Shown: positions 1 through 14,964, counted from the first letter of the stretch. The stretch: 32,000 nucleotides of DNA from Candidatus Nanosynbacter lyticus (GCF_000803625.1 NZ_CP007496.1:660001-692000); one strand, 5' to 3'. Notes: generated by a model not told the origin, from the sequence alone. Numbers and translations are program-made.

Positions 1-5
1 CTATC

Positions 6-1559
6 CTAACTCGGTATATCTCTAAACAAATCAACCTCCTGGCGATCAATAGATATTTTATTCGTCTCCCTGATGCCTTGTAGTATATCGACGTCAACTA
101 TACTTGTGTCTCTAACTGTTTTCATTATGTCGTCCTTTAGCCAATCAATACACCAGATAATAGAATTATCAATATATGCTCTTTCACTGACTGACCGGGT
201 TAATAATTCATTAAATTGCAAGTCCGGATCAATAGAGTAAGATACTCGCTGCAACCAAATATCTAATAAGCCAGTGTTAGGTATAATCTTGAACTTATCA
301 AGAATTTTTTGAACAAGGAGTCCCCTCCTTGACTCACCCGCCCCACGGATAGTTAGACTCGCAACCGCCATCGCCATATTGTAGTATTTAGGGTTTTTAA
401 TTGCCATATTAACTACAATACTCAGCATAACTTCTGGTTTTTCATAATGACGTAAGCTTTTTCCTTGATCTAAGTAATCAAGAAGTTCCTCGTGAAACAT
501 ATTTAGCTGGCGAGACACCATACCTGAATTAGGATATTTATAACTAGCTGCATAAATCTGCATTAACCATTTTGCAAAATTATCTTTTTCTTTCTTTATA
601 TTCGGTATAAATAATTCTTCGATCTTATCCTTTTTAATAGAACTCAAGACTATATCGCTGCTCTTTTTGGTCTTCTGTGCATTTAATCTAAGACCAAGTA
701 TTGCTAAAATTTCAGTTAACTCTTTCAGTATACGAGCTCCTAGATCTAGCCTATTGGTAAAAATTCGATAGTCATCCCTGTAGCGAACAATGGAATATTC
801 TCTTTTATCAATATCTTTTATAGCTTGAGCTAAAAGATTATCAGCATATGCAAAGATAAGCTCAGCAATAAAATCAGAAAGAGTGTTTCCCTGAGGTATC
901 CCATTTGTTTGTCGATGATTCATCATCTGAAAATGCTCATCAATTTTACCTCCCAAAGATTTTTTATCACGGTTAGCATAAGCCTCGTCTTTACCATGAA
1001 GAGCCCATGAAATAGAATGCGTATATATTGATCCATAACAGTTTGCAACATCAGTTTCTAAGACATATCGAAACTCAAGACCTTTAGCCGCACAGTTTTG
1101 CTCAAATTTCTCCCACCAAGCACGTATTTGCTCCGCTTTCGCGCTTTTCTTTTTTGAGGGTTGCACTGGAATACTAGCAACTTCAATATTACAACCCCTC
1201 CTTAACTCAGAAAATCGCTTTTTTATAACACTCCAATTATCCTCTTTAGTGATATAATGCACTAACCCTACATAAAGAACCGGATTTATTATCTCAAATG
1301 GCCTCCAGGCTAGTTCACCGTCTTTGTTGCCGTAAATCACTTTATTTACATCATGTCTATCTCGTGGGTCTTTCTTCTTACGGCCACCATCCTCTGGATC
1401 AAAAAAATAATTAACATCATAACCGCCCATCTTACTTGACACAGCTTGAAGTATTGGATCAAAGTTAAAATATTCAGGCAAATCAAAGTTTACATAACTT
1501 TTACCGTCCAGCAAAAAAGCACGAGCTTGCTTATGATCAAGTTCTAATATATTAGCCAT
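6..1559 (-). CDS. Reverse transcriptase of the AbiA / UG-Abi (defence-associated, non-retron) type, 517 aa
   Basis: RT motifs are readable in the translation: KDGELAWRPFEIINP (motifs 1-2), LETDVANCYGSIYTHSISWALHGK (motif A), NGIPQGNTLSDFIAELIF (motif B), VRYRDDYRIF (motif C; YRDD = nt 771-782), LGLRLNAQKTK (motif D/E). The SIYTHSI-W-GK block resembles lactococcal AbiA as I recall it. A ~215-aa helical-looking C-terminal extension follows. The ATG shares one base with the hsdS stop (TAATG, 1557-1561). Confidence 0.8.
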   Translation of the reverse strand: MANILELDHKQARAFLLDGKSYVNFDLPEYFNFDPILQAVSSKMGGYDVNYFFDPEDGGRKKKDPRDRHDVNKVIYGNKDGELAWRPFEIINPVLYVGLVHYITKEDNWSVIKKRFSELRRGCNIEVASIPVQPSKKKSAKAEQIRAWWEKFEQNCAAKGLEFRYVLETDVANCYGSIYTHSISWALHGKDEAYANRDKKSLGGKIDEHFQMMNHRQTNGIPQGNTLSDFIAELIFAYADNLLAQAIKDIDKREYSIVRYRDDYRIFTNRLDLGARILKELTEILAILGLRLNAQKTKKSSDIVLSSIKKDKIEELFIPNIKKEKDNFAKWLMQIYAASYKYPNSGMVSRQLNMFHEELLDYLDQGKSLRHYEKPEVMLSIVVNMAIKNPKYYNMAMAVASLTIRGAGESRRGLLVQKILDKFKIIPNTGLLDIWLQRVSYSIDPDLQFNELLTRSVSERAYIDNSIIWCIDWLKDDIMKTVRDTSIVDVDILQGIRETNKISIDRQEVDLFRDIPS

Positions 1560-2668
1560 TATATCTTAATCTCTCCGGAAATTAATTTTGGTAAAAGCAA
1601 ATCACGAATTTTGGACAAATAATCTATTTGCTTCTTGTTTTCATGTATCATATCAAACAATGGTCGCACCATCTGCTCGAAATCATCAAACTCGCAATCT
1701 GATAAATCAACAATTTCCAAAAGCTCTATGTGCTTTGGATAAATATGCGGCTGACCAGAGCCAGTTTGCATATCGTATATCTCTTTTTGCTTGTTCTTGA
1801 GGAATAAATAGTAGGTATAAACATATTTGGTAATTGTTGAGTCAATGTACGAAGAGTCTGCCGACCATACTGGTTCACCCCAAACAGACACAAAACCAGC
1901 ATTTGCTCCGGATGCACTTATCGTGATAACTGGCGCGGTCGTATTTGCTTCATTGTGAAATCCGGCTGGCTTCAGTCCACCGCTAATAACCGGTGTGTCA
2001 CCACAAATCATATCTCTAGCTTGCAAACTTCTACCTCTTTTTGGATGAAACTTTTTTCCTAAAGGTATGGTCTGTATATTACCATTACTCTGCTTAGCTT
2101 TATCAACAAAATAATGACGAAAGAGGGTTTGGCCAAGCTGCTCGAGGGTTTCGTTCATGCGGCGGTTGAGCTCGATTTTTTCATCAAGGCTGCTGAGGAT
2201 ATCGGCAATTTTCTTTTGTTGGTAGAGTGGCGGCAGATTGATGGTCATAGCTGATATTTGCTTAGAACCCAAATTCTGCTGAGCAGCACCAACAGCAGCG
2301 CTTAGGAGTTTTTCATAACTATTTACAAGATAATAGTACACGAATCTATAATCAGCTTTGTTGTTATCAATTATTAAATTGCAACAGGCTTGATTTGTAG
2401 CCAATGGAATCTTATTAATCGCAGACCTGCCGGCAGTTGCACCATACATAGCTACAATCACGGAATCTTCAGGGATAATCTTTGCCGATGAGTTCTTTAG
2501 CCCTAATTCTGTAATTGTTTTTTCAGTTGAATAAATATTACCAAAATTAACCTCCTGAGTCCTTAACCACGGTATACCGCCACCATAGTAATCATCCCTC
2601 TTGGTTAACGGCGTTCCACCAGATGTAATTTTAGTACAAATATCGCTCAACGAAACCGTCTGTATCAT
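1559..2668 (-). CDS. hsdS: Type I restriction-modification specificity subunit HsdS, 369 aa
   Basis: Two variable target-recognition halves are separated by the central conserved helix LPPLYQQKKIADILSSLDEKIELNRRMNETLEQLGQTLFRHYF, with the C-terminal conserved LLPKLISGEIKI. The start overlaps the KAP gene stop (ATGA, 2665-2668). Same operon as hsdM. Confidence 0.85.
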   Translation of the reverse strand: MIQTVSLSDICTKITSGGTPLTKRDDYYGGGIPWLRTQEVNFGNIYSTEKTITELGLKNSSAKIIPEDSVIVAMYGATAGRSAINKIPLATNQACCNLIIDNNKADYRFVYYYLVNSYEKLLSAAVGAAQQNLGSKQISAMTINLPPLYQQKKIADILSSLDEKIELNRRMNETLEQLGQTLFRHYFVDKAKQSNGNIQTIPLGKKFHPKRGRSLQARDMICGDTPVISGGLKPAGFHNEANTTAPVITISASGANAGFVSVWGEPVWSADSSYIDSTITKYVYTYYLFLKNKQKEIYDMQTGSGQPHIYPKHIELLEIVDLSDCEFDDFEQMVRPLFDMIHENKKQIDYLSKIRDLLLPKLISGEIKI

Positions 2669-3960
2669 CGCTCATCACTTTCTGTAGAGATTGTTGTATA
2701 TAAACCAATGAGAGCAGTCGCCTCCTCAAAATCTTGTAGGTTTTCGCCACTTCGCCCCCTACCTTCAGAAGCAAAGATATTTTTGTATTCCACTATCAAC
2801 GCATCTACCGCCTTCTCTTTCATCTCCTCTTGCGATAAACTTGAACCATCCTCATATACAAATCTTTCTGCATATCCAAGAGCACTATATGAATTAGCAG
2901 TAAAATCTCTTAGTACGCCCTCACCTCTGCCTGATTTGAATTGTTCATATAAACTATCGTTTTTTATCTTTAGCGCAAGGGCCAGAGGTACGAACACAAG
3001 CTGTGTCGGATATTGGTCCTTCCTCCAGTTGTTATTTCTTGTCAGAAACCGACTCACCAAACGAAGTGATGAATAGTATGAATTAATTTCACGCATCTCA
3101 AAGCCGTAGTATTCTATAGCGTCAAATGCAACTCCATTAACTATCATGCTGCCTTCCATCCAGTCAAGTACGCTTCTTGCATACACTTCGATGCTCAACT
3201 TACGCAAACCAAACGTAAAATCAAAAAATTTATTTAGATACGCATATCCATCAAAGTCACTTCCGTAATATTTCTTAATTGTATGTGAAAGTTGATTGAC
3301 ATTTGTCGTAATGATGAACGTCACATCATCACGCATAAAATAATGCTTAACAACCTCTAGCAACTCGACAGCAAAAGACGGACGACAGCGATCAAGCTCA
3401 TCAATTACAAAAATGAGTCTTTCGGAATCACCTTTTAACTTATCAATGAATTCGTTTACTGTATCGTGTCGATTTACTTGATCTTTTACCGCTTTGACAA
3501 GGTCAGCCTTACTAGTCTTATTATCAATGTCTATAAAATCATGGGTTATGTTCTTTAATCCTGCAGACATGGTTATCATACTAAGAGCCTTCTTTATCGA
3601 GCCTTGGGTCAGACTTTCATCGTCGTCCGCTATCAACTTTAGCAACATAGCACTGAGCGCGTCGCCAAGATAATCATATTCCCACGCATTGAAATAGAAA
3701 GTTTTTTGTTTTTCTCGCAAAAGGTTGATTGCATTCTCGTCAAGAGTATTATGGCCATAATCTTGAATAGCACTGTCAGATAACATTAGTAGTTGCTTTA
3801 CAAACACCGTTTTACCGGATCCCCATGCACCATCAATTGCCAAAACGGTACTTTCTTTCAATGAATTTAGTAGCTTCACAAGCATTGACAGCTGATTGTT
3901 ACGCAGAATAGTATTATTGTGCAAATGCCTTAGGATTTGTTTATCTGTTAATTCTTTCAT
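2665..3960 (-). CDS. KAP-family P-loop NTPase, apparently soluble, 431 aa
   Basis: Walker A GAWGSGKT (aa 44-51), FNAWEYDY, Walker B FVIDELDRCRP (aa 184-194) and a later EMREINSYYSSLRL block are the KAP NTPase signature as I know it. No convincing TM helices lie between Walker A and B. An SD-like GGGGAAG sits in the 9-nt gap upstream. Confidence 0.75.
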   Translation of the reverse strand: MKELTDKQILRHLHNNTILRNNQLSMLVKLLNSLKESTVLAIDGAWGSGKTVFVKQLLMLSDSAIQDYGHNTLDENAINLLREKQKTFYFNAWEYDYLGDALSAMLLKLIADDDESLTQGSIKKALSMITMSAGLKNITHDFIDIDNKTSKADLVKAVKDQVNRHDTVNEFIDKLKGDSERLIFVIDELDRCRPSFAVELLEVVKHYFMRDDVTFIITTNVNQLSHTIKKYYGSDFDGYAYLNKFFDFTFGLRKLSIEVYARSVLDWMEGSMIVNGVAFDAIEYYGFEMREINSYYSSLRLVSRFLTRNNNWRKDQYPTQLVFVPLALALKIKNDSLYEQFKSGRGEGVLRDFTANSYSALGYAERFVYEDGSSLSQEEMKEKAVDALIVEYKNIFASEGRGRSGENLQDFEEATALIGLYTTISTESDER

Positions 3961-3969
3961 TTCTTCCCC

Positions 3970-4332
3970 TTAACCTTCTCCTTCACAGATAGCCCAGATG
4001 CGAAAATTGGTAGCAATATTTGACTTCACACGGTAACCAAGCTCAATTAACGTGTCTAGGCTATAATGCTCTATATTCCTTGAGACCTCACGATCACCTT
4101 TAGTTTGAACTATAAAGAATTTCTTTATAGTTGCCGAAGGGACGAGCGCTTTCTCTTCGTAGATATTCTTAATATGTTGGCCTATATTTTGCCTTGTAGT
4201 CTGAAATACCTGGGCCAACTGCACTTGAGTGAGCCACATATTTTCATCTTGTAGCCTAGCTTGAATCTGCGGCTTGCCGTCATCGCCAACATACAACACC
4301 ATCTCGCTGTTCGGGTTGTTGCTATTCATCAT
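3970..4332 (-). CDS. RhuM-family protein, N-terminal fragment only (120 aa; likely a truncated remnant)
   Basis: The translation [31 protein letters not shown] ... [33 protein letters not shown] matches the N-terminal third of RhuM-like proteins (usually about 300+ aa, from memory). It then ends in ICEGEG-stop. The start overlaps the hsdM stop (ATGA, 4329-4332). Confidence 0.6.
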
Positions 4333-5816
4333 TTGGTTTCTTTCTCTATTTTGGCAAGATTTTCTTTTATTTTTACCTCTAACTCACGGCTCTTCGCAAA
4401 TTGCCCTTCAAGCTCAGCCGTCAACCGAGCAAATTTCTCGGCGAACGGCTCATCGTCTTCCTCGGCCTCTTCGACACCAACGTAACGACCGGGTGCCAGT
4501 ACGTAATCATGCTGCTTGATTTCTTCTAGATCAGCGACTTTGCAGAAGCCCTGCTGGTCAGCGTAATCCGCGCTGGCAGTTTTATAATCGTGATATGTCT
4601 TTGCTACCCTGGCAATATCTTCTTCGGTCAGCTCGCGGTTACGACGGGTGACCATTTTACCCAAATTACGCCCATCGATGAACAGTACTTTACCGTGACG
4701 ATTAGCACGATCGCGCGACACAAACCACAGACAGCACGGTATAGCGACGTTAAAAAATAACTGACTCGGCAGTGTGACGATGGCGTCAACCATATCATTG
4801 AGCACTAGCTGCTTGCGGATGTCACCTTCGCCGCCAGTTTGACTGCTCATGCTCCCGTTTGCCAACACAAAACCTGCCGTACCACGCGGGCTCAAGTGGT
4901 GAATCATATGTTGAATCCAGGCAAAGTTAGCATTACCCTTTGGCGGCAGTCCATACTTCCAGCGTGGGTCGGCCTGCAAATGTTCTTGACCCCAGTCACT
5001 AATATTAAACGGTGGGTTAGCTAAGATATAATCAGCTTTCAGGTCAGGAAGCTGGTCATCCATCAAGGTGTCGCCGCGTTTGATATTTGCGTCAATTCCC
5101 CGAATTGCCATATTCATTTTAGCGAGTCGCCAAGTGGTTTCGTTGAGCTCCTGACCATACACCGCGATATCGCTAACGCGGCCCGCATGCTCCTCGACAA
5201 ACTTCTCACTCCAGACGAACATACCACCACTACCGCAACATGGGTCGTACACGCGCCCACTGTATGGCTCAAGCATTTCTACCAGCAATTTCACGATGGA
5301 GCGCGGCGTGTAGAATTCACCACCATGCTTACCCTCACTGTCGGCAAACATACCCATAAAATATTCGTACACTTGACCAAGCAAGTCTTTGGAGCTGGCA
5401 GTATCAAATTTAATATTGGTAAATAAATCGATGAGTTCACCTAGGCGACGCTTATCCAGAGCTTCACGAGCATAATTTTTTGGCAACACTCCCTTCAGAC
5501 TAGGGTTGTCGCGCTCAATCGCCTCCATGGCACTATCAACTAAGACGCCAATTTCTGGCTGTTTGGCACTCGCCACTAGGTATTCCCAACGAGCCTCCTT
5601 GGGAATCCAAAAAATATTCTCCGCCAAATACCAATCCTGGTCTTCAGGATCATAATTCTCATCAATCGCTGTCTGATATCGCACCGAAAACGCATCCGAA
5701 ACATATTTTAGAAAGATCAACCCCAGTACCACATATTTATAGTCCGACGAACTAATATTACCCCGTAGTTTATCCGCCGCAGCCCACAACTGCTTTTCAA
5801 GCTCCCTCGTATTCAT
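4329..5816 (-). CDS. hsdM: Type I restriction-modification N6-adenine DNA methyltransferase HsdM, 495 aa
   Basis: HsdM N-terminal domain ([32 protein letters not shown]), SAM-binding motif [13 protein letters not shown], catalytic LANPPFN. Confidence 0.93.
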
Positions 5817-5822
5817 AGATAG

Positions 5823-5831
5823 ATTATATCA
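5823..5831 (-). promoter_or_regulatory. Extended -10 element TGATATAAT placed 6 nt from the hsdM ATG (leaderless-type promoter)
   Basis: The minus strand reads TGATATAAT-CTATCT-ATG(5816). There is no Shine-Dalgarno. The element lies directly after the radC stop (5847-5849). Confidence 0.45.
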
Positions 5832-5846
5832 GATTTTGAGGCTCAT

Positions 5847-6500
5847 TTACTCTGCGTGCAGCAAGCTCTTGTAATTAAGTTTTGTAACGATAATATGATC
5901 ATTAAGCGTAATACCAAGCAGTTTTCCCGCTTCCACCAGCCTGTTCGTTACTTCTTTATCAGCAATACTGGCCCCTAAACACCCGCTCGGATGATTATGC
6001 GCCACGATAATCGAGGCGGCACGGTCGGCGATGGCGTCGGCGAAGACCTCGCGCGGATGTACCAAGCTGGCGGTCAGCGTGCCGATGGTCACCACCCGCT
6101 TGGCGATCAAACGATTCGCGCCGTCCAGCGTCAGGCAGACAAAATATTCCTGCTTTTTGTCGCGAATGTCGGCCAGTAGCTCGACGGCCTTTTCTGGGCT
6201 GTCGATGATTGGTTGGTCGCTATCTAGCAAGTACCGCCGCGCCAGTTCCAAACTTGCCAGAATCACCGGAATTTTCGCTTCGCCCAAACCAACCACGCTA
6301 CGCAGATCATCATACGAAACATCGCCGCCTTTTTGACGCAAAATTTTCAGTACCTCGCGCGCAATTTTACTGACATCGGCCCGAGCGTTGCCGCTGCCAA
6401 TAATCGCCATCAACAGCTCCAAGTCACTCAGCCGCGCCGTACCGTAACGCGCCAATTTCTCGCGGGGACGGTCGATTTTTGGCTTGTCGAGCACTTTCAT
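5847..6500 (-). CDS. radC: RadC-like JAB/MPN domain protein (UPF0758 family), 217 aa
   Basis: N-terminal helix-hairpin-helix-like region (LSDLELLMAIIGSGNARADV) and the C-terminal JAB motif IIVAHNHPSG. Confidence 0.85.
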   Translation of the reverse strand: MKVLDKPKIDRPREKLARYGTARLSDLELLMAIIGSGNARADVSKIAREVLKILRQKGGDVSYDDLRSVVGLGEAKIPVILASLELARRYLLDSDQPIIDSPEKAVELLADIRDKKQEYFVCLTLDGANRLIAKRVVTIGTLTASLVHPREVFADAIADRAASIIVAHNHPSGCLGASIADKEVTNRLVEAGKLLGITLNDHIIVTKLNYKSLLHAE

Positions 6501-6506
6501 AGTTTC

Positions 6507-6515
6507 ATTATATCA
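6507..6515 (-). promoter_or_regulatory. Extended -10 element TGATATAAT placed 6 nt from the radC ATG (leaderless-type promoter)
   Basis: The minus strand reads TGATATAAT-GAAACT-ATG(6500). There is no SD. Confidence 0.45.
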
Positions 6516-6597
6516 GGCTTCAACCATTCATCAGCTGCCAATCTTCGCGCTATCATTTCGTGCAGCCCTATTTATCGCTTACACCACGCAAAGATCA

Positions 6598-8355
6598 TCA
6601 GCTATTCGGAATCGCTCTAGCTTGTCGGCCGCGCGCCACACACATCGCCACCACCAACATACCAACCAGCCGCGACACCAATGACGAGTCATCCGCAGCC
6701 GATTGAGTCGTTGTCACCACTCCCTCTTCTGGATTTAGCGGACTATCGTCTGACCATAAACCAAATGATGGATGGATATTCATCAGCAAATCATCACCAT
6801 TCGCTACATTTTCTTCGCCATTATAGACACAATCATCCAGAGCATCGTTAAGTTCTACTTGCTCTCCGGACAGGTTGATGCCTGATTTTATATCACTAAC
6901 ATCCATAATTACACTTTCAATTTTATCATCACTGCGCAGCAAATCGCTTTTTTCCGATGTTTTCACAAACCTAAATTCACACTTCTCACGAGGCACGGGA
7001 CATTCCTCTGGAATTTTCGCTGCCACCTCGTCCGACTCAATATCAGGTATTGTTTCGATAATCGATGAAGTGGAAATAGTTACTTGCTCCACTGGCTTAT
7101 AGTCATCAGTTTCTTCACGCACTGTAATGGTTTCTATTGGCAGCGCAATCGTCACTGCTTCAGCCGAAGACACTTCCGACTCTACTGCTGGCGACTCCTG
7201 CCGTTCGACAAAGAAAACCGTATCTTCTTCAGCCCAAAAATCATTATCCTTATCATGACTACGCTCTACCGCTACATTGTTATAGTCAAGTTGCTCAATT
7301 GACGATATCTGTGTATCAATGAAAATTTGATCCGCCGCCAATACGTCAATCTCCTCATTTGGAGGATTAACCTTAGCTTCATCAATTATTGCGGTATCAA
7401 CCAGCCGCTCATTATCAATACTGTCAGTCGATTCGACAAAATTATTATAATCCGGCGTCGCATCTAAGGATTCTGGTGTCGGTTTCTTGTTGTCATTATG
7501 CGCTGCGTCAGAAATAGCATCAATGACGTGTGACTTCACCTCTATTGAAGGACTACTCGCCTCTGCTGTTTCGGTAAAATGCCCTTCGCCAGAAATTTCG
7601 CTAGTACTTTCTGACAGAGCTTCCCCGGCATCTGTAGTATCGTCAGCGGCAATTTCTGGGGCTGTTTTTAACTCAAAGAATGGCGTTTCTACTGCTTCAG
7701 TATCCACATCCTCGCCCGAAGCTTCAACCGCCTGGTTAGTCGAAGTTTTATCTTCTCGTTCCTGCGATATGAGTTTCTCAGTTGACTTATTTGTTTTAGT
7801 TGTCAAATCTATGGGTTTTGCCTCTGCCAACACTAGCTCAGGCGCTTTTTTAATAATAGGCTCTTGATAATCGGTAGGCTCTGAATATCCCGCCATCACC
7901 AATTCCCCGCGTCCATTTTCATCCAGACTGTCGAGATCGTCTGGAGCTAGCAATCTCTCCAGATAACTTTCTTTTGGTGTTATTTCCATCAGATTAGGAA
8001 CCGCCTCTTCACCCGCAGAACTCATATCGTCAGATAGTTTATCCTGACTCTCTGATTCCTGTTTCACGGCTAACGCCTGAGGTTTTACACACTGGCTAAG
8101 AAATGGACAGCCAACACATGTCGCGCATGCTGTTTGACCAATTGACGCTGTTACTTCCCCAGTAGAAGGTAGCTCTTCTTCACCGCTAGCCACCGCCACC
8201 AAATCAAACTGCTCAACACTATCAGCCACCGTTTCGCCAATACCAAACAAAAGATCTTCACCACTGACACCATCTCTTAGCGACGAAAATACGTCAGAAT
8301 CATCACCGTCAATTCCTGTCGATGATAATTCTACGGTAGTCGTCGCCCCAATCAT
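6598..8355 (-). CDS. Hypothetical hyper-acidic protein, 585 aa, with an N-proximal CxxCxxCx5C cluster and a C-terminal hydrophobic anchor
   Basis: 1.76-kb uninterrupted ORF whose ATG overlaps the upstream FNR-like gene stop (ATGA, 8352-8355). It is D/E/S/T-rich throughout. Cys77/80/83/89 (CATCVGCPFLSQC) map to nt 8089-8127. The C-terminus is LVSRLVGMLVVAMCVARGRQAR. I recognise no family. Confidence 0.55.
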   Translation of the reverse strand: MIGATTTVELSSTGIDGDDSDVFSSLRDGVSGEDLLFGIGETVADSVEQFDLVAVASGEEELPSTGEVTASIGQTACATCVGCPFLSQCVKPQALAVKQESESQDKLSDDMSSAGEEAVPNLMEITPKESYLERLLAPDDLDSLDENGRGELVMAGYSEPTDYQEPIIKKAPELVLAEAKPIDLTTKTNKSTEKLISQEREDKTSTNQAVEASGEDVDTEAVETPFFELKTAPEIAADDTTDAGEALSESTSEISGEGHFTETAEASSPSIEVKSHVIDAISDAAHNDNKKPTPESLDATPDYNNFVESTDSIDNERLVDTAIIDEAKVNPPNEEIDVLAADQIFIDTQISSIEQLDYNNVAVERSHDKDNDFWAEEDTVFFVERQESPAVESEVSSAEAVTIALPIETITVREETDDYKPVEQVTISTSSIIETIPDIESDEVAAKIPEECPVPREKCEFRFVKTSEKSDLLRSDDKIESVIMDVSDIKSGINLSGEQVELNDALDDCVYNGEENVANGDDLLMNIHPSFGLWSDDSPLNPEEGVVTTTQSAADDSSLVSRLVGMLVVAMCVARGRQARAIPNS

Positions 8356-9014
8356 TGCTCAAAAAATGTCTCCGTTGAAATATGTGATTCATCGACACCG
8401 GCGGCGGTGAGTTTTTGCCAAACATCTCGTACAAATGGCAAGCTACCGCAGACCAGAAAGTGCACCTCACTCGGCACCTCACCAACAATGTTTGCTACCT
8501 CAAACCGCCCATTATACCAGCCATCTCGTTCCTCAACCTGCTGGCGGGTACTAAACTTTTTGACCGTAATATTCGACGCCGCTAACTCCTCAGAAAACAC
8601 CATATATTCTGGCGATTTTTGACTAAAATAGAGAAAGGTCGGCTGCTGGGTGTCTGCCAAAATACTCCAGATCGGACTCAGCCCGCACCCCGCAGCGATG
8701 CCAACCAGCGGCCGCTCGGTTTGCGGATTGAAATCGCCATATGACCGACTAATATGTAACGTATCGCCAACGCGGCGCGAACACAGATAGCTTGAGAATT
8801 CACCGCCAACATTTTTGACGGTAATTGACATCAGCTCCTCACTTGGGCGCGAGGAAATACTATAGGCCTTGCCTTCACGCACCTGGCTGCCCTCAATGAA
8901 CACCGTGATATATTGCCCCGCCATAAAGTCAAACGTTCGCGCAAAATACAGCGTTGTCACCTCAGGGTTTTCCTGGCGCACGCGCACAATTTCGACAGTT
9001 AGTGAATCACGCAT
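8352..9014 (-). CDS. FNR-like (ferredoxin reductase / PyrK-type) FAD/NAD(P)-binding oxidoreductase, 220 aa, with no Fe-S domain
   Basis: FAD-binding-like GKAYSISS and VKNVGGEFSSYL, NAD(P)-binding GIAAGCGLSPIWSIL, C-terminal FLVCGSLPF. The gene overlaps the nrdG stop by 16 nt. Confidence 0.7.
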   Translation of the reverse strand: MRDSLTVEIVRVRQENPEVTTLYFARTFDFMAGQYITVFIEGSQVREGKAYSISSRPSEELMSITVKNVGGEFSSYLCSRRVGDTLHISRSYGDFNPQTERPLVGIAAGCGLSPIWSILADTQQPTFLYFSQKSPEYMVFSEELAASNITVKKFSTRQQVEERDGWYNGRFEVANIVGEVPSEVHFLVCGSLPFVRDVWQKLTAAGVDESHISTETFFEQ

Positions 9015-9742
9015 TCTTCGACATACCTTTCCATTATTTTTTGGGCAGCTCTGAATTCCTCATCAGTAAAGGTGTGGTAGTTGGCAAATTTTGGACTAAT
9101 CGTCGTGCCAGTGCGAAAATGCTGCAGAGCAAATCGCTTGGCACCTTTAACAAGCTCACCAATCTTTTCAAAATCCGCCACCTCCAGCTGCTCGCGGACG
9201 ATCGTCGTCCGAAATTCATGACCAATCCCTGAATCAATCATCAGCCGCACATTGTCTTTGATCGCCGTGAGATCAATCGGCCGCGCCGCAATCTCCACGT
9301 ATTTTTCCAGCGGCCCCTTAACGTCCATGGCGATGAAGTCAATCGTCCCCTCCTCGACCATACCGCGCACCATGTCAGGATGCGTGCCGTTGGTATCCAG
9401 CTTGACATCAAAACCAAGACCCTTAATCATCCGACACAACACCGGCAAATCCTCATTGACCGTCGGCTCGCCACCAGAAATCACCACGCCGTCTAGCCGG
9501 CCAATACGCGATTTCAGAAAGATCATCGCCTCCTCGACCGGGATGCTCGGTGCCAACCGCTCAGGTAACACCAGCTCAGGATTGTGGCAATAGCCGCAGC
9601 GCATATTACAGCCAGAGAGAAACAGCGCTGCCGCCACGTGCCCGGGATAGTCCACCAGCGACAGCTTCTGAATCCCGCCAATCGCCACCTTAAGCTGGGA
9701 CAGCGACGGCGCAAGCTCGCTGATGTTCGGCGGCATCGTCAT
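8999..9742 (-). CDS. nrdG: Anaerobic ribonucleoside-triphosphate reductase activating protein (radical SAM), 247 aa
   Basis: Radical-SAM cluster motif CNMRCGYCHN and GGEPT. It lies immediately downstream of nrdD and overlaps it. SD GAGGGAG lies upstream of the ATG. Confidence 0.85.
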   Translation of the reverse strand: MTMPPNISELAPSLSQLKVAIGGIQKLSLVDYPGHVAAALFLSGCNMRCGYCHNPELVLPERLAPSIPVEEAMIFLKSRIGRLDGVVISGGEPTVNEDLPVLCRMIKGLGFDVKLDTNGTHPDMVRGMVEEGTIDFIAMDVKGPLEKYVEIAARPIDLTAIKDNVRLMIDSGIGHEFRTTIVREQLEVADFEKIGELVKGAKRFALQHFRTGTTISPKFANYHTFTDEEFRAAQKIMERYVEECVIH

Positions 9743-11819
9743 AATGCTCCCTCATGTCAAATTCAGCCTGCTTACCCTTGTTCCACTGAGAAACTGGGCG
9801 CAAGAAGCCAACCACACGTGAGTAAACTTCGGTCGTTTCATTACAATTTGGACATGTTGGATGTTCACCAACCAAGTAACCGTGATTCTTACAAATACTG
9901 AAGCTTGGGCTGAAGGTGAAGTATGGCAGTTTGTAATTTTCACAAATCGTTTTGACCAGTTTTTTCAGCGTCTGCGGATCATCCATGCGCTCACCCAGGA
10001 AGAAGTGAATCACCGTACCACCCGTGTACTTGGTCTGCAAATTATCCTGCAAATCCATCAGCTCAAACAGGTCGTCAGTGTAGTTGACCGGCAAGTGGCT
10101 GGAGTTGGTATAGAACGGATGCTTGACCGCCGCGCCGAGGCCATTGGCGAAGTGCGCTCGGTCAGGGAAGCTGGCCTTGTCGAGCTGCGCCAAGCGATAG
10201 GTCGTACCCTCAGCTGGCGTCGCCTCCAGGTTGTAGTTATTGCCCGTTTCTTTCTGGTATTCCACCAAGCGGTCGCGCATGAAATCAAGTGTTTTCTCGG
10301 CAAACGCCTTACCCTTTTCCGTGCCAATGTCAACACCCAGCAGGTTCAACGCCGCTTCGTTGGTGCCAATCAAACCAATGGTTGAGAAGTGATTTTTCCA
10401 GTATTGGTTAAATCGCTGCTTGATGTTGCGCAAGTAGAACTTGGTGTACGGGTAGAGGTTAGCGTCAGTCAATCGCTCCAGGACCTTGCGCTTAGTCTCC
10501 AGACTATCTTTCGCCATATCCATGAGTTCGCCTAGGCCCTTGAAAAACTCTTTCTCATTCTTCGACTTCAGTGCCAAACGTGGCAAGTTAATCGTCACCA
10601 CACCAACTGAACCAGTCATTGGGTTTGAGCCAAACAAGCCACCACCGCGATATTCCAGCTGGCGATTATCAATGCGCAAACGGCAGCACATTGAGCGCGC
10701 GTCTTCTGGATCCATATCAGAATTGATGAAATTCGAGAAGTACGGAATGCCATACTTGGCGCTGGCTTCCCACAGACTTTCAATCACTGGATTATCCCAG
10801 TTGAAATCCTTGGTAATATTAACCGTTGGGATTGGGAAGGTAAAGACGCGGCCGTTAGCATCACCCTCAGACAGCACCTCCAGCAGCGCCTTGTTGAGCA
10901 TATTCATCTCTTCTTGGTATTCGCCATAAGTGGAATCCTGCATTTCACCGCCGATTATCACTGGATTATCAGCCATGTGTTTTGGGCACTCGAGATCAAG
11001 CGTAATGTTGGTAAACGGTGTTTGGAAACCAACTCGTGTTGGCACATTAACATTAAAGACGAATTCTTGCAGCGCCTGCTTCACCTCGTCGTAGTTCAAT
11101 TTATCAGCGCGAATAAATGGCGCCAGCAGTGTATCAAAATCAGAAAATGCCTGAGCACCAGCTGCCTCACCCTGCAAGGTGTAGAAGAAGTTTACCACCT
11201 GGCCCAAGGCTGAGCGGAAATGCTTGGCTGGCTTGGAGGCCACCTTTCCAGCAACACCGGTAAAGCCTTCTTGCAACAGATCAGTTAAATCCCAACCAAC
11301 ACAGTAAACACTGAGGAGATTCAGGTCGTGAATGTGCAAATCACCCTCTTTGTGTGCCTGACCAATCTTTGGCGTGTAGATTTTGTCCAACCAGTAAGTT
11401 TTGGTAATTTCGGCTGAAACGTAATTGTTCAAACCCTGTAGGCTGTAGCCCATGTTGGAGTTTTCATTCACTTTCCAGTCCAAGTTGCCCAGGTATTTAT
11501 CAATTAAATCAATGTGCGATTCAGAGGTAATTTCACGTAATTTTTTGTGCTGGTCGCGGTAAATAATGTAGGCCTTGGCGGTCTTCTTAAACTTAGAATC
11601 AATCAAAATATCTTCGACAATGTCTTGGATATCTTCAACGCCCGGTAGACGTTTTTGGTTGCGAGCTTCCAACACCACCAGCACTTTCTCAGTTAGATCC
11701 TCGGCAGTTTTTTTATCAAATTCGCCAGTCTCCAGGCCGGCTTTTTCAATGGCTTTTTCGATTTTTTTGCGATCAAATTTGACGGTGCGACCATCACGTT
11801 TTTTGATTGATTTGTACAT
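9690..11819 (-). CDS. nrdD: Anaerobic (class III) ribonucleoside-triphosphate reductase NrdD, 709 aa from the SD-supported start
   Basis: N-terminal ATP-cone (MYKSIKKRDGRTVKFDRKKIEKAIEKAG), active-site SMCCRLR, C-terminal Zn-Cys CKNHG...CPNC, and the glycyl-radical segment SRVVGFLRP. A strong SD TAAGGAGGGG lies directly before ATG 11819, so the ORF-track start at 11888 is rejected. Confidence 0.93.
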   Translation of the reverse strand: MYKSIKKRDGRTVKFDRKKIEKAIEKAGLETGEFDKKTAEDLTEKVLVVLEARNQKRLPGVEDIQDIVEDILIDSKFKKTAKAYIIYRDQHKKLREITSESHIDLIDKYLGNLDWKVNENSNMGYSLQGLNNYVSAEITKTYWLDKIYTPKIGQAHKEGDLHIHDLNLLSVYCVGWDLTDLLQEGFTGVAGKVASKPAKHFRSALGQVVNFFYTLQGEAAGAQAFSDFDTLLAPFIRADKLNYDEVKQALQEFVFNVNVPTRVGFQTPFTNITLDLECPKHMADNPVIIGGEMQDSTYGEYQEEMNMLNKALLEVLSEGDANGRVFTFPIPTVNITKDFNWDNPVIESLWEASAKYGIPYFSNFINSDMDPEDARSMCCRLRIDNRQLEYRGGGLFGSNPMTGSVGVVTINLPRLALKSKNEKEFFKGLGELMDMAKDSLETKRKVLERLTDANLYPYTKFYLRNIKQRFNQYWKNHFSTIGLIGTNEAALNLLGVDIGTEKGKAFAEKTLDFMRDRLVEYQKETGNNYNLEATPAEGTTYRLAQLDKASFPDRAHFANGLGAAVKHPFYTNSSHLPVNYTDDLFELMDLQDNLQTKYTGGTVIHFFLGERMDDPQTLKKLVKTICENYKLPYFTFSPSFSICKNHGYLVGEHPTCPNCNETTEVYSRVVGFLRPVSQWNKGKQAEFDMREHYDDAAEHQRACAVAVPA

Positions 11820-11904
11820 ACCCCTCCTTATTATGACAACAACAAACAGGCCCCAATCTCCCCGAGGGGTGCGTGTTGCAAAAAACATTATTTATTTTCT
11901 AAAA

Positions 11905-14889: not shown

Positions 14890-14964
14890 TGGCTCCGGCA
14901 GCTGGGCTCGAACCAGCGACCTATTGGTTAACAGCCAACCGCTCTACCACTGAGCTATGCCGGA
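14890..14964 (-). tRNA. tRNA-Asn (anticodon GTT), 75 nt, CCA encoded
   Basis: The reverse complement folds as a cloverleaf. Acceptor TCCGGCA/TGCCGGA, D arm GCTC-AGTGGTA-GAGC, anticodon arm GTTGG-CTGTTAA-CCAAT, T arm GCTGG-TTCGAGC-CCAGC, discriminator G, CCA. Confidence 0.93.

Follow-up and report, generated by a model that had tools for sequence, protein, structure and literature searches.

Does the type I R-M (restriction–modification) locus of Candidatus Nanosynbacter lyticus TM7x, which holds a reverse transcriptase (RT) and a KAP-family NTPase among its hsd genes, encode a dedicated composite defence system, or does it carry defence genes that act for themselves? The locus lies at the left end of the window, by which we mean the whole 32,000-nucleotide (nt) stretch of DNA analysed here, from a genome of 705,138 bp. 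A preliminary description of the window took the first view, reading hsdM–KAP–hsdS–RT as a new, layered arrangement in which the RT and/or the NTPase fire when restriction is blocked. We conclude that the second is probably correct, the type I operon being a likely hotspot for autonomous, interchangeable and co-expressed defence cargo.

The full gene order, assembled from the window and from retrieved contigs (labelled L001 and so on) with an identical RT or KAP gene, is radC, hsdM, RhuM-N, KAP, hsdS, RT, an opposite-strand pair encoding a PIN protein and a 264-amino-acid (aa) protein, and hsdR (Table 1). All five same-strand open reading frames (ORFs) from hsdM to the RT, with the junctions between them, lie where the preliminary description had placed them, and the domain calls of Pfam, PADLOC and NCBIfam agree with it; TM7x_03560 is 100% identical to the window RT. 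HsdM matches N6_Mtase (2.7e-113) and HsdM_N (1.4e-26) in Pfam and MTase_I in PADLOC (2.7e-208), and HsdS matches Methylase_S in two stretches (Pfam, 1.2e-38) and Specificity_I (PADLOC, 1.2e-88). The operon had been described as running off the left edge of the window. Extension of the contig in that direction does reach hsdR, beyond the RT and the PIN/264-aa pair (L002:12927–16079, 1050 aa; PADLOC REase_I, E = 0; all five Pfam domains), starting 1.39 kb past the PIN stop in the extended contigs; the RT, however, already terminates at 6–8 and is followed by the convergent PIN gene. The components are those of a type I system: HsdM_N and N6_Mtase domains, an HsdS with two target-recognition domains (TRDs), and an HsdR with nuclease, SF2 motor and C-terminal domains. 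The window holds the mod half of the only type I R-M locus in TM7x, whose enzyme activity is predicted, and the family assignments bear out the claim of a type I locus with defence passengers.

Further evidence comes from sister strains, in which a frame of radC–hsdM–slot 1–hsdS–slot 2–hsdR is conserved and the cargo changes in both slots (Table 1). The KAP gene is found paired with five different slot-2 cargos, and the Abi-P2-type RT with three different slot-1 cargos. Slot 2 accepts Abi-P2, a 324-aa RT and an AbiA-like RT, and so houses three distinct RT types in a single lineage. This independent assortment of KAP and RT among sister strains speaks against their forming one dedicated composite with the hsd genes.

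Breakpoints of the exchange can be placed on the window (window coordinate = 11560 minus the L002 coordinate). Homology ends at ~3992 against L018, with its full-length RhuM, at ~4067 against the L178 variant and at ~4378 against L019. The RT and the last ~50 nt of hsdS (1608–5) move as one block in L018 and L019, and the frame resumes at the hsdR promoter past the slot-2 breakpoint. Some strains have radC, hsdM and hsdR genes that are only 88–96% identical, while their RT–PIN–264-aa segment is 100% identical (for L001–L010, RT identity is 100% by construction of the retrieval, that of the PIN and 264-aa genes is not), and in L012 and L020 RhuM-N, KAP and hsdS are also 100% identical despite diverged flanks. 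An identical inner block between diverged flanks points to recent recombinational spread. Cargo would be exchanged by homologous recombination between strains of this naturally competent lineage, with homology arms supplied by the conserved 5′ part of hsdM/RhuM-N, the central region of hsdS and the 5′ end of hsdR.

Between strains hsdM has a dN/dS of 0.02–0.07, and hsdS has only its central conserved region (window ~2100–2240) in common among all strains. In L005 and L007, TRD1 is replaced (only 22% of window 2113–2668 aligns), with TRD2 and the RT kept at 95–100% identity, a sign that specificity was switched through the exchange of TRDs between oral strains that co-exist.

Recent sweeps between strains are visible, and would also be expected if the passengers were selfish hitchhikers or addiction modules, lodged in a constitutively expressed, hard-to-lose operon and giving the host no protection from phages. 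The foreign GC content of the cargo (0.36–0.39, against 0.48 for hsdM and 0.53 for radC) fits such an origin, as do the toxin–antitoxin (TA)-like pairs that recur in slot 2 (PIN with the 264-aa protein, HTH-Panacea with a 136-aa protein, M78 with DUF4411). We nevertheless regard this explanation as very improbable: the anti-phage activity of Abi-P2, AbiA and AbiZ has been established by experiment, purifying selection acts on the cargo, and a 705-kb genome is under strong pressure against useless DNA.

Table 1 Features of the TM7x locus (window coordinates unless a contig is named) and cargo of the two slots in Nanosynbacter strains
Feature	Position	Strand	Details
hsdM, type I R-M methyltransferase subunit	4329–5816	−	495 aa; Pfam and PADLOC
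RhuM-N, ORF with only the RhuM N-terminal domain, PADLOC PDC-S05	3970–4332	−	120 aa; slot 1
Soluble KAP-family P-loop NTPase, PADLOC candidate family PDC-S20	2665–3960	−	431 aa; slot 1 (hsdM–hsdS)
hsdS, specificity subunit, two target-recognition domains	1559–2668	−	369 aa
Abi-P2-type reverse transcriptase	6–1559	−	517 aa; slot 2 (hsdS–hsdR)
First bases of the 1365-bp insertion (PIN and 264-aa pair)	1–4		remainder and hsdR outside the window
Extended −10 promoter element TGATATAAT	5823–5831	−	6 nt upstream of the hsdM ATG (5816); predicted leaderless or near-leaderless mRNA
radC, conserved left border of the locus, outside the system	5847–6500	−	Pfam RadC, 1.1e-38
Slot 1 cargo: RhuM-N and KAP			TM7x, L099–L105
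Slot 1 cargo: full-length RhuM and 666-aa HATPase			L018
Slot 1 cargo: 685-aa HATPase_c_3 protein			L019
Slot 1 cargo: RhuM-N and Schlafen-AlbA ATPase			L178–L182
Slot 2 cargo: Abi-P2 and PIN/264 aa			TM7x
Slot 2 cargo: Abi-P2 alone			L018, L019
Slot 2 cargo: AbiA-like RT, HTH-Panacea and 136 aa			L099
Slot 2 cargo: AriA/OLD-like ATPase and opposite-strand M78/DUF4411			L103
Slot 2 cargo: PIN_12 and S24 peptidase			L104, L183–L186
Slot 2 cargo: AbiZ			L105
Slot 2 cargo: 324-aa RT (RVT_1), preceded by a 196-aa ORF	10060–11711 (L178–L182)		very common Saccharibacteria variant

The slot-2 RT of TM7x is, judged by its sequence, a bona fide full-length Abi-P2 (UG/Abi class 1 RT). It matches positions 4–484 of 489 of the PADLOC AbiP2 model (4.1e-171) and the solved Abi-P2 structure (PDB 7r08; 6e-72 over residues 2–493), and is a full-length homologue of the founders, the RTs from phages P2-EC30 and P2-EC58 (33% identity, 99% coverage). 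The YRDD catalytic motif lies at residues 260–263 and is present in 77/80 relatives. Members of this family carry out protein-primed, template-independent DNA synthesis (PMC11077055), and Abi-P2 alone excludes phage T5, being active on its own in P2 prophages (PMC8632793). Despite the kinship with the coliphage proteins, which includes the YRDD motif and an aligned C-terminal region, the genomic settings differ: the founders stand by themselves in a prophage hotspot flanked by the portal gene and gene A, whereas the TM7x RT is coupled to hsdS in a chromosomal R-M operon. Distant members of the family likewise stand alone, in the P2 prophage hotspot, between insertion sequence elements or beside a type IIG-like enzyme, and also occur on plasmids. 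A survey of UG/Abi RTs (PMC9226505), in which hsd is nowhere mentioned, describes AbiP2 as a stand-alone multi-domain protein present in defence islands, in phages and on plasmids.

The RT matches Pfam RVT_1 and, weakly, the NCBIfam models of group II and retron RTs, as might a conventional retroelement that had merely inserted at this site, be it a group II intron, a retron or a diversity-generating retroelement. Those NCBIfam matches fall far below their cut-offs (56 bits against 300 for group II, 32 against 235 for retrons). This reading is refuted by them, by the full-length AbiP2 and 7r08 matches, by Rfam, which finds only a tRNA and no intron or retron RNA in the window, and by the left flank, where a PIN cassette and then hsdR lie; its probability is close to nil.

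How general the association with hsd genes is can be judged from a profile scan of one genome per species, which returned at least 586 relatives of the RT; the best 80 were examined (39–100% identity, many phyla), taking flanks of up to 10 kb on each side and searching their ORFs with profiles built by iteration from the Hsd proteins of TM7x. Same-strand hsd genes are present in 36/80 loci, against two with opposite-strand hsd-like genes only (binomial 5e-9), and hsd genes occur in 22 of the 39 loci that have at least 5 kb on both flanks. Of the loci, 24 have hsdM/S on one side of the RT and hsdR on the other, hsdS ends no more than 150 nt from the RT start, often overlapping it, in 16 of the 63 loci with enough upstream sequence, and hsdR starts no more than 88 nt from the RT end in 10. 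Other same-strand passengers of these hsd–RT loci bear domains typical of defence: RhuM, SIR2, ThsB/TIR, STALD, Schlafen-AlbA, GmrSD, YhcG nucleases, AbiH and Abi_C.

Two stricter forms of association were rejected. The RT and the Hsd proteins show no strict co-evolution (Mantel r of 0.16 with HsdM, 0.25 with HsdR and 0.17 with HsdS), the partner HsdM proteins differing by up to 84%. Nor is there an hsd-specific RT lineage: on the tree, RTs from inside and outside hsd loci are interspersed, and an RT and its nearest neighbour agree in being embedded or free at a frequency of 0.54, where the null is 0.49 (p = 0.35).

The place of the RT recalls EcoprrI–PrrC, a type IC hsd locus whose anticodon nuclease is a passenger between hsdS and hsdR and which exemplifies layered defence (PMC12707154). 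By analogy, and in line with the preliminary description, the Abi-P2 RT and/or the KAP NTPase could be bound and silenced by the type I enzyme and fire once that enzyme is disabled by an anti-restriction protein of a phage. With PrrC as an established precedent, the RT at the prrC position and translationally coupled to hsdS both here and in many phyla, same-strand embedding that is highly non-random, and a KAP NTPase, tmn, that synergises with PrrC-type systems, there are arguments for such a guardian role. We think it improbable all the same, because embedded RTs are intermixed with free ones and barely co-diversify with HsdM, HsdS or HsdR, unrelated cargo occupies the same slot of sister strains, and Abi-P2 works alone in P2 prophages; these points tell equally against the composite first proposed. 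Masking by the R-M complex has been shown for PrrC, whereas the indirect evolutionary evidence on the RT argues against obligate coupling, and the TM7x passengers have no sequence or domain kinship with PrrC (no ABC ATPase–HEPN architecture, and no passenger resembling PrrC in PADLOC). A broader form of the idea casts the Abi-P2 clade of the hsdS–hsdR junction, whose translational coupling to hsdS extends over at least ten phyla, as guarding type I restriction in general: assembled with or gated by the HsdM2S core, it would start untemplated DNA synthesis, and so abortive infection, once a phage anti-restriction protein has put the enzyme out of action. This strikes us as similarly improbable. 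Were it true, the clade would be a second, polymerase-based analogue of PrrC, the two slots of the hsd operon would be dedicated docking sites for guards, and the conserved hsdS–RT coupling would have a meaning beyond co-expression.

The KAP NTPase of slot 1 matches positions 1–283 of 293 of KAP_NTPase (PF07693, 1e-36) and PADLOC PDC-S20 (8.7e-54), with weaker PADLOC matches to PifA (8e-13) and QatA (2e-9), and carries Walker A (GAWGSGKT, residue 44) and Walker B (LIFVIDELD, residue 182) motifs. It has no transmembrane (TM) segment, the highest 19-residue Kyte–Doolittle mean being 1.13, and so departs from the classical KAP/tmn architecture with its TM helices. The likeness to the KAP defence proteins tmn, PifA and QatA thus consists of a KAP-family P-loop whose Walker A and B motifs are intact; unlike tmn the protein lacks TM helices (and does not match tmn), and unlike PifA and QatA it is much shorter and has no Qat partners. 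Its dN/dS between strains is 0.14–0.31. When metagenomes were scanned with a profile of KAP (80 loci), hsd genes lay near KAP relatives in 27/80 loci, and in 5/22 of those with at least 3 kb on both flanks. This enrichment is weaker than that of the RT, yet well above a chance level that was estimated rather than computed. The preliminary description would have been undermined had RT and KAP relatives shown no preference for hsd genes, and on this point it stands. Our literature search found no paper mentioning PDC-S20.

Upstream of KAP, RhuM-N had been taken for a remnant; it is instead a conserved short gene under purifying selection. It matches only positions 1–48 of 252 of Pfam Virulence_RhuM and the N-terminal ~113 positions of PDC-S05 (1.5e-42), and so differs from full-length RhuM/PDC-S05 proteins (~330 aa) in that the C-terminal bulk is absent from the Pfam and PADLOC matches. 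The best 120 clusters of homologues are all 97–138 aa long, dN/dS is 0.23–0.39, and residues 1–88 are nearly invariant, with C-terminal tails that differ with the downstream cargo. The gene may have an N-domain function of its own, possibly exercised with the adjacent NTPase, or may be a coupling bridge and recombination arm. A more specific proposal makes RhuM-N and its downstream gene a two-gene module, in which a ~90-residue N-domain acts as sensor or adaptor for a swappable effector, provided in cis (the RhuM C-domain) or in trans (a KAP NTPase or Schlafen-AlbA ATPase). The length conservation of an intact ORF in at least 120 clusters, the dN/dS values, the invariant N-terminus with tails that track the next gene, and a position always directly upstream of an NTPase-type cargo gene would all suit it. 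We hold the proposal to be rather unlikely, given that L019 and L106 have no detectable RhuM-N beside their cargo, that the conservation could come in part from a role as recombination arm and from translational coupling to hsdM, that the dN/dS estimate is drawn from only ~120 codons, and that an AlphaFold2 model (20-sequence alignment) has a mean predicted local distance difference test score (pLDDT) of 42.6, too poor to assign fold or function.

The sequence itself shows the junctions of the five ORFs: ATGA at 4329–4332 is common to the hsdM stop and the RhuM-N start, 9 nt (GGGGAAGAA) separate the RhuM-N stop from the KAP ATG, ATGA at 2665–2668 is common to the KAP stop and the hsdS start, and TAATG at 1557–1561 to the hsdS stop and the RT start. 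Elsewhere in the window, most same-strand neighbours overlap or lie within ~11 nt of each other. Directly upstream of the locus (8352–11888, minus strand), a region encoding NrdD (an anaerobic ribonucleotide reductase with ATP-cone and NRDD domains), a radical-SAM activase and a 220-aa oxidoreductase-like ORF has overlapping junctions throughout. Tight packing is thus the norm in this compact genome, and the coupled junctions alone do not rise above background; it is the retention of the arrangement in other strains and phyla that exceeds chance.

The leaderless-type promoter previously proposed before hsdM is real. The TGATATAAT element begins 15 nt past the radC stop codon, and the pattern TCTGnTATAAT, then 6–7 nt, then ATG is invariant in 12 strains, with variation in the adjacent bases; one of the 12, L106, has unrelated upstream DNA, and this conservation supports a leaderless-type promoter. 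In front of hsdR, TGGTGTATAAT lies 9 nt before the ATG and is conserved both in the TM7x-type locus and in strains that lack the PIN insert (L002:12921–12945, L018:11557–11581), so hsdR is most likely a separate transcription unit. Classical type I systems likewise have two promoters, Pmod and Pres. With −10 elements only 6 nt (hsdM) and 9 nt (hsdR) before the ATG, both genes look leaderless or near-leaderless, a mode of expression that may be general in Saccharibacteria. The operon had been said to contain no terminator-like hairpin. A pattern scan does give three weak minus-strand matches inside ORFs (at 5559, 2295 and 1763), and 10 matches in total over positions 1–7000 on both strands against 4.4 ± 2.6 expected; as short stems within coding sequence, none is convincing. 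No terminator was found between the convergent RT and PIN stop codons, which are 8 nt apart in all extended contigs. In agreement with the earlier proposal, hsdM, RhuM-N, KAP, hsdS and RT are very probably co-transcribed.

Beyond the RT, slot 2 of TM7x holds a further insertion. The PIN protein (168 aa; Pfam 28.2 bits against a cut-off of 23.6) and the overlapping 264-aa protein, for which no Pfam or PADLOC family was found, are encoded on the opposite strand (L002:11563–12847) between the RT stop and the hsdR promoter. The 1365-bp insert spans exactly L002:11556–12920 and is absent from L018 and L019, where hsdR is 9 nt past the RT. An analogous opposite-strand pair occupies slot 2 of L103 (Peptidase_M78, 367 aa, and DUF4411, 169 aa). 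Each pair could be a TA-like or a defence module, one in which the partner is unusually large.

On the carrier reading, the single extended −10 promoter at the hsdM start would drive a translationally coupled message running from hsdM through RhuM-N, KAP and hsdS to the RT, with hsdR transcribed apart from its own −10 element in a manner resembling Pmod/Pres. Restriction would act first, attacking unmethylated incoming DNA. Abi-P2, through protein-primed, untemplated DNA synthesis, would provide abortive infection or a second line against phages that escape restriction, acting independently of the R-M enzyme, and the KAP NTPase would probably be another independent abortive-infection or second-line module.

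Several points weigh against this picture. We know of no cultured Saccharibacteria phage. The defence roles of KAP (PDC-S20) and RhuM-N (PDC-S05) are candidate assignments only, and the RT census is confined to the best 80 among at least 586 relatives. Co-expression may not be all that lies behind the start/stop overlap between hsdS and the RT, which is very frequent in distant phyla; stoichiometric assembly with HsdM2S is one further possibility, and would better fit a guardian. The locus may also be decaying in some cultures: in the complete NCBI genomes L012 (CP076459.1) and L013 (CP040011.1), which match the window at ~100% of nucleotides, ORF calling breaks the RT into two pieces (166 + 373 aa) and hsdS or hsdR is split or missing, the result either of sequencing or homopolymer error or of real pseudogenization in culture.

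The principle behind such a carrier is published. Payne et al. (2024) listed 17,432 genes that lie within loci of the BREX, DISARM and type I R-M kinds, derived 145 PDC candidate systems from them for PADLOC, and place RhuM among the most abundant embedded families (bioRxiv 10.1101/2024.01.29.577857). The TM7x locus resembles these ‘guilt by embedding’ loci in its same-strand cargo between hsd genes, including PDC-S20 (KAP) and PDC-S05 (RhuM-N), and differs in having two slots and four cargo genes within a 705-kb Saccharibacteria genome; Abi-P2 as a preferential hsdS–hsdR passenger goes unmentioned in the text consulted. With its parts catalogued as AbiP2, PDC-S20 and PDC-S05 and the embedding principle in print, the arrangement is less new than the preliminary description supposed. 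TgvAB, in the type I R-M cluster of Vibrio cholerae VPI-2 (PMC11411939), is a close functional parallel, being an independent embedded defence that is active alone and complements restriction; it is a GmrSD-like type IV restriction system, whereas the TM7x cargo comprises an RT, a KAP NTPase and a PIN pair. The Rlo (restriction-linked ORF) genes of Campylobacter jejuni, compared here by citation only, are likewise variable ORFs between the hsd genes of conserved type I loci, and belong to different gene families.

radC lies upstream of hsdM in nearly all Nanosynbacter-type loci, and its neighbour (6598–8355, minus strand) encodes a low-complexity protein of 585 aa that is very acidic and has no Pfam match. 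Sister strains have a 647-aa version, to which only ~49% of the gene aligns, at 91% identity; the protein appears to be fast-evolving and possibly surface-exposed. The sole Rfam/ARAGORN match in the window, a tRNA-Asn (GTT) at 14890–14964 (minus strand), is ~9 kb from the hsd locus and has no evident link to it.

Since the host principle is known and every part belongs to a catalogued family, the locus opens no new category. The preference of an Abi-P2 clade for the hsdS–hsdR junction and the two-slot hotspot in Saccharibacteria are each modestly novel, neither being described in the literature we searched, which also yielded no paper on the TM7x locus. An Abi-P2 RT clade is tied to a precise hsdS–RT–hsdR position across many phyla, which offers a lead to what these enzymes sense. 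As TM7x can be cultivated with its host, the predictions made here are testable. For the organism itself, an ultrasmall, CRISPR-less oral episymbiont devotes ~10 kb of a 705-kb genome to a rapidly reshuffled two-slot defence hotspot, a finding that bears on how bacteria of the candidate phyla radiation resist phages.

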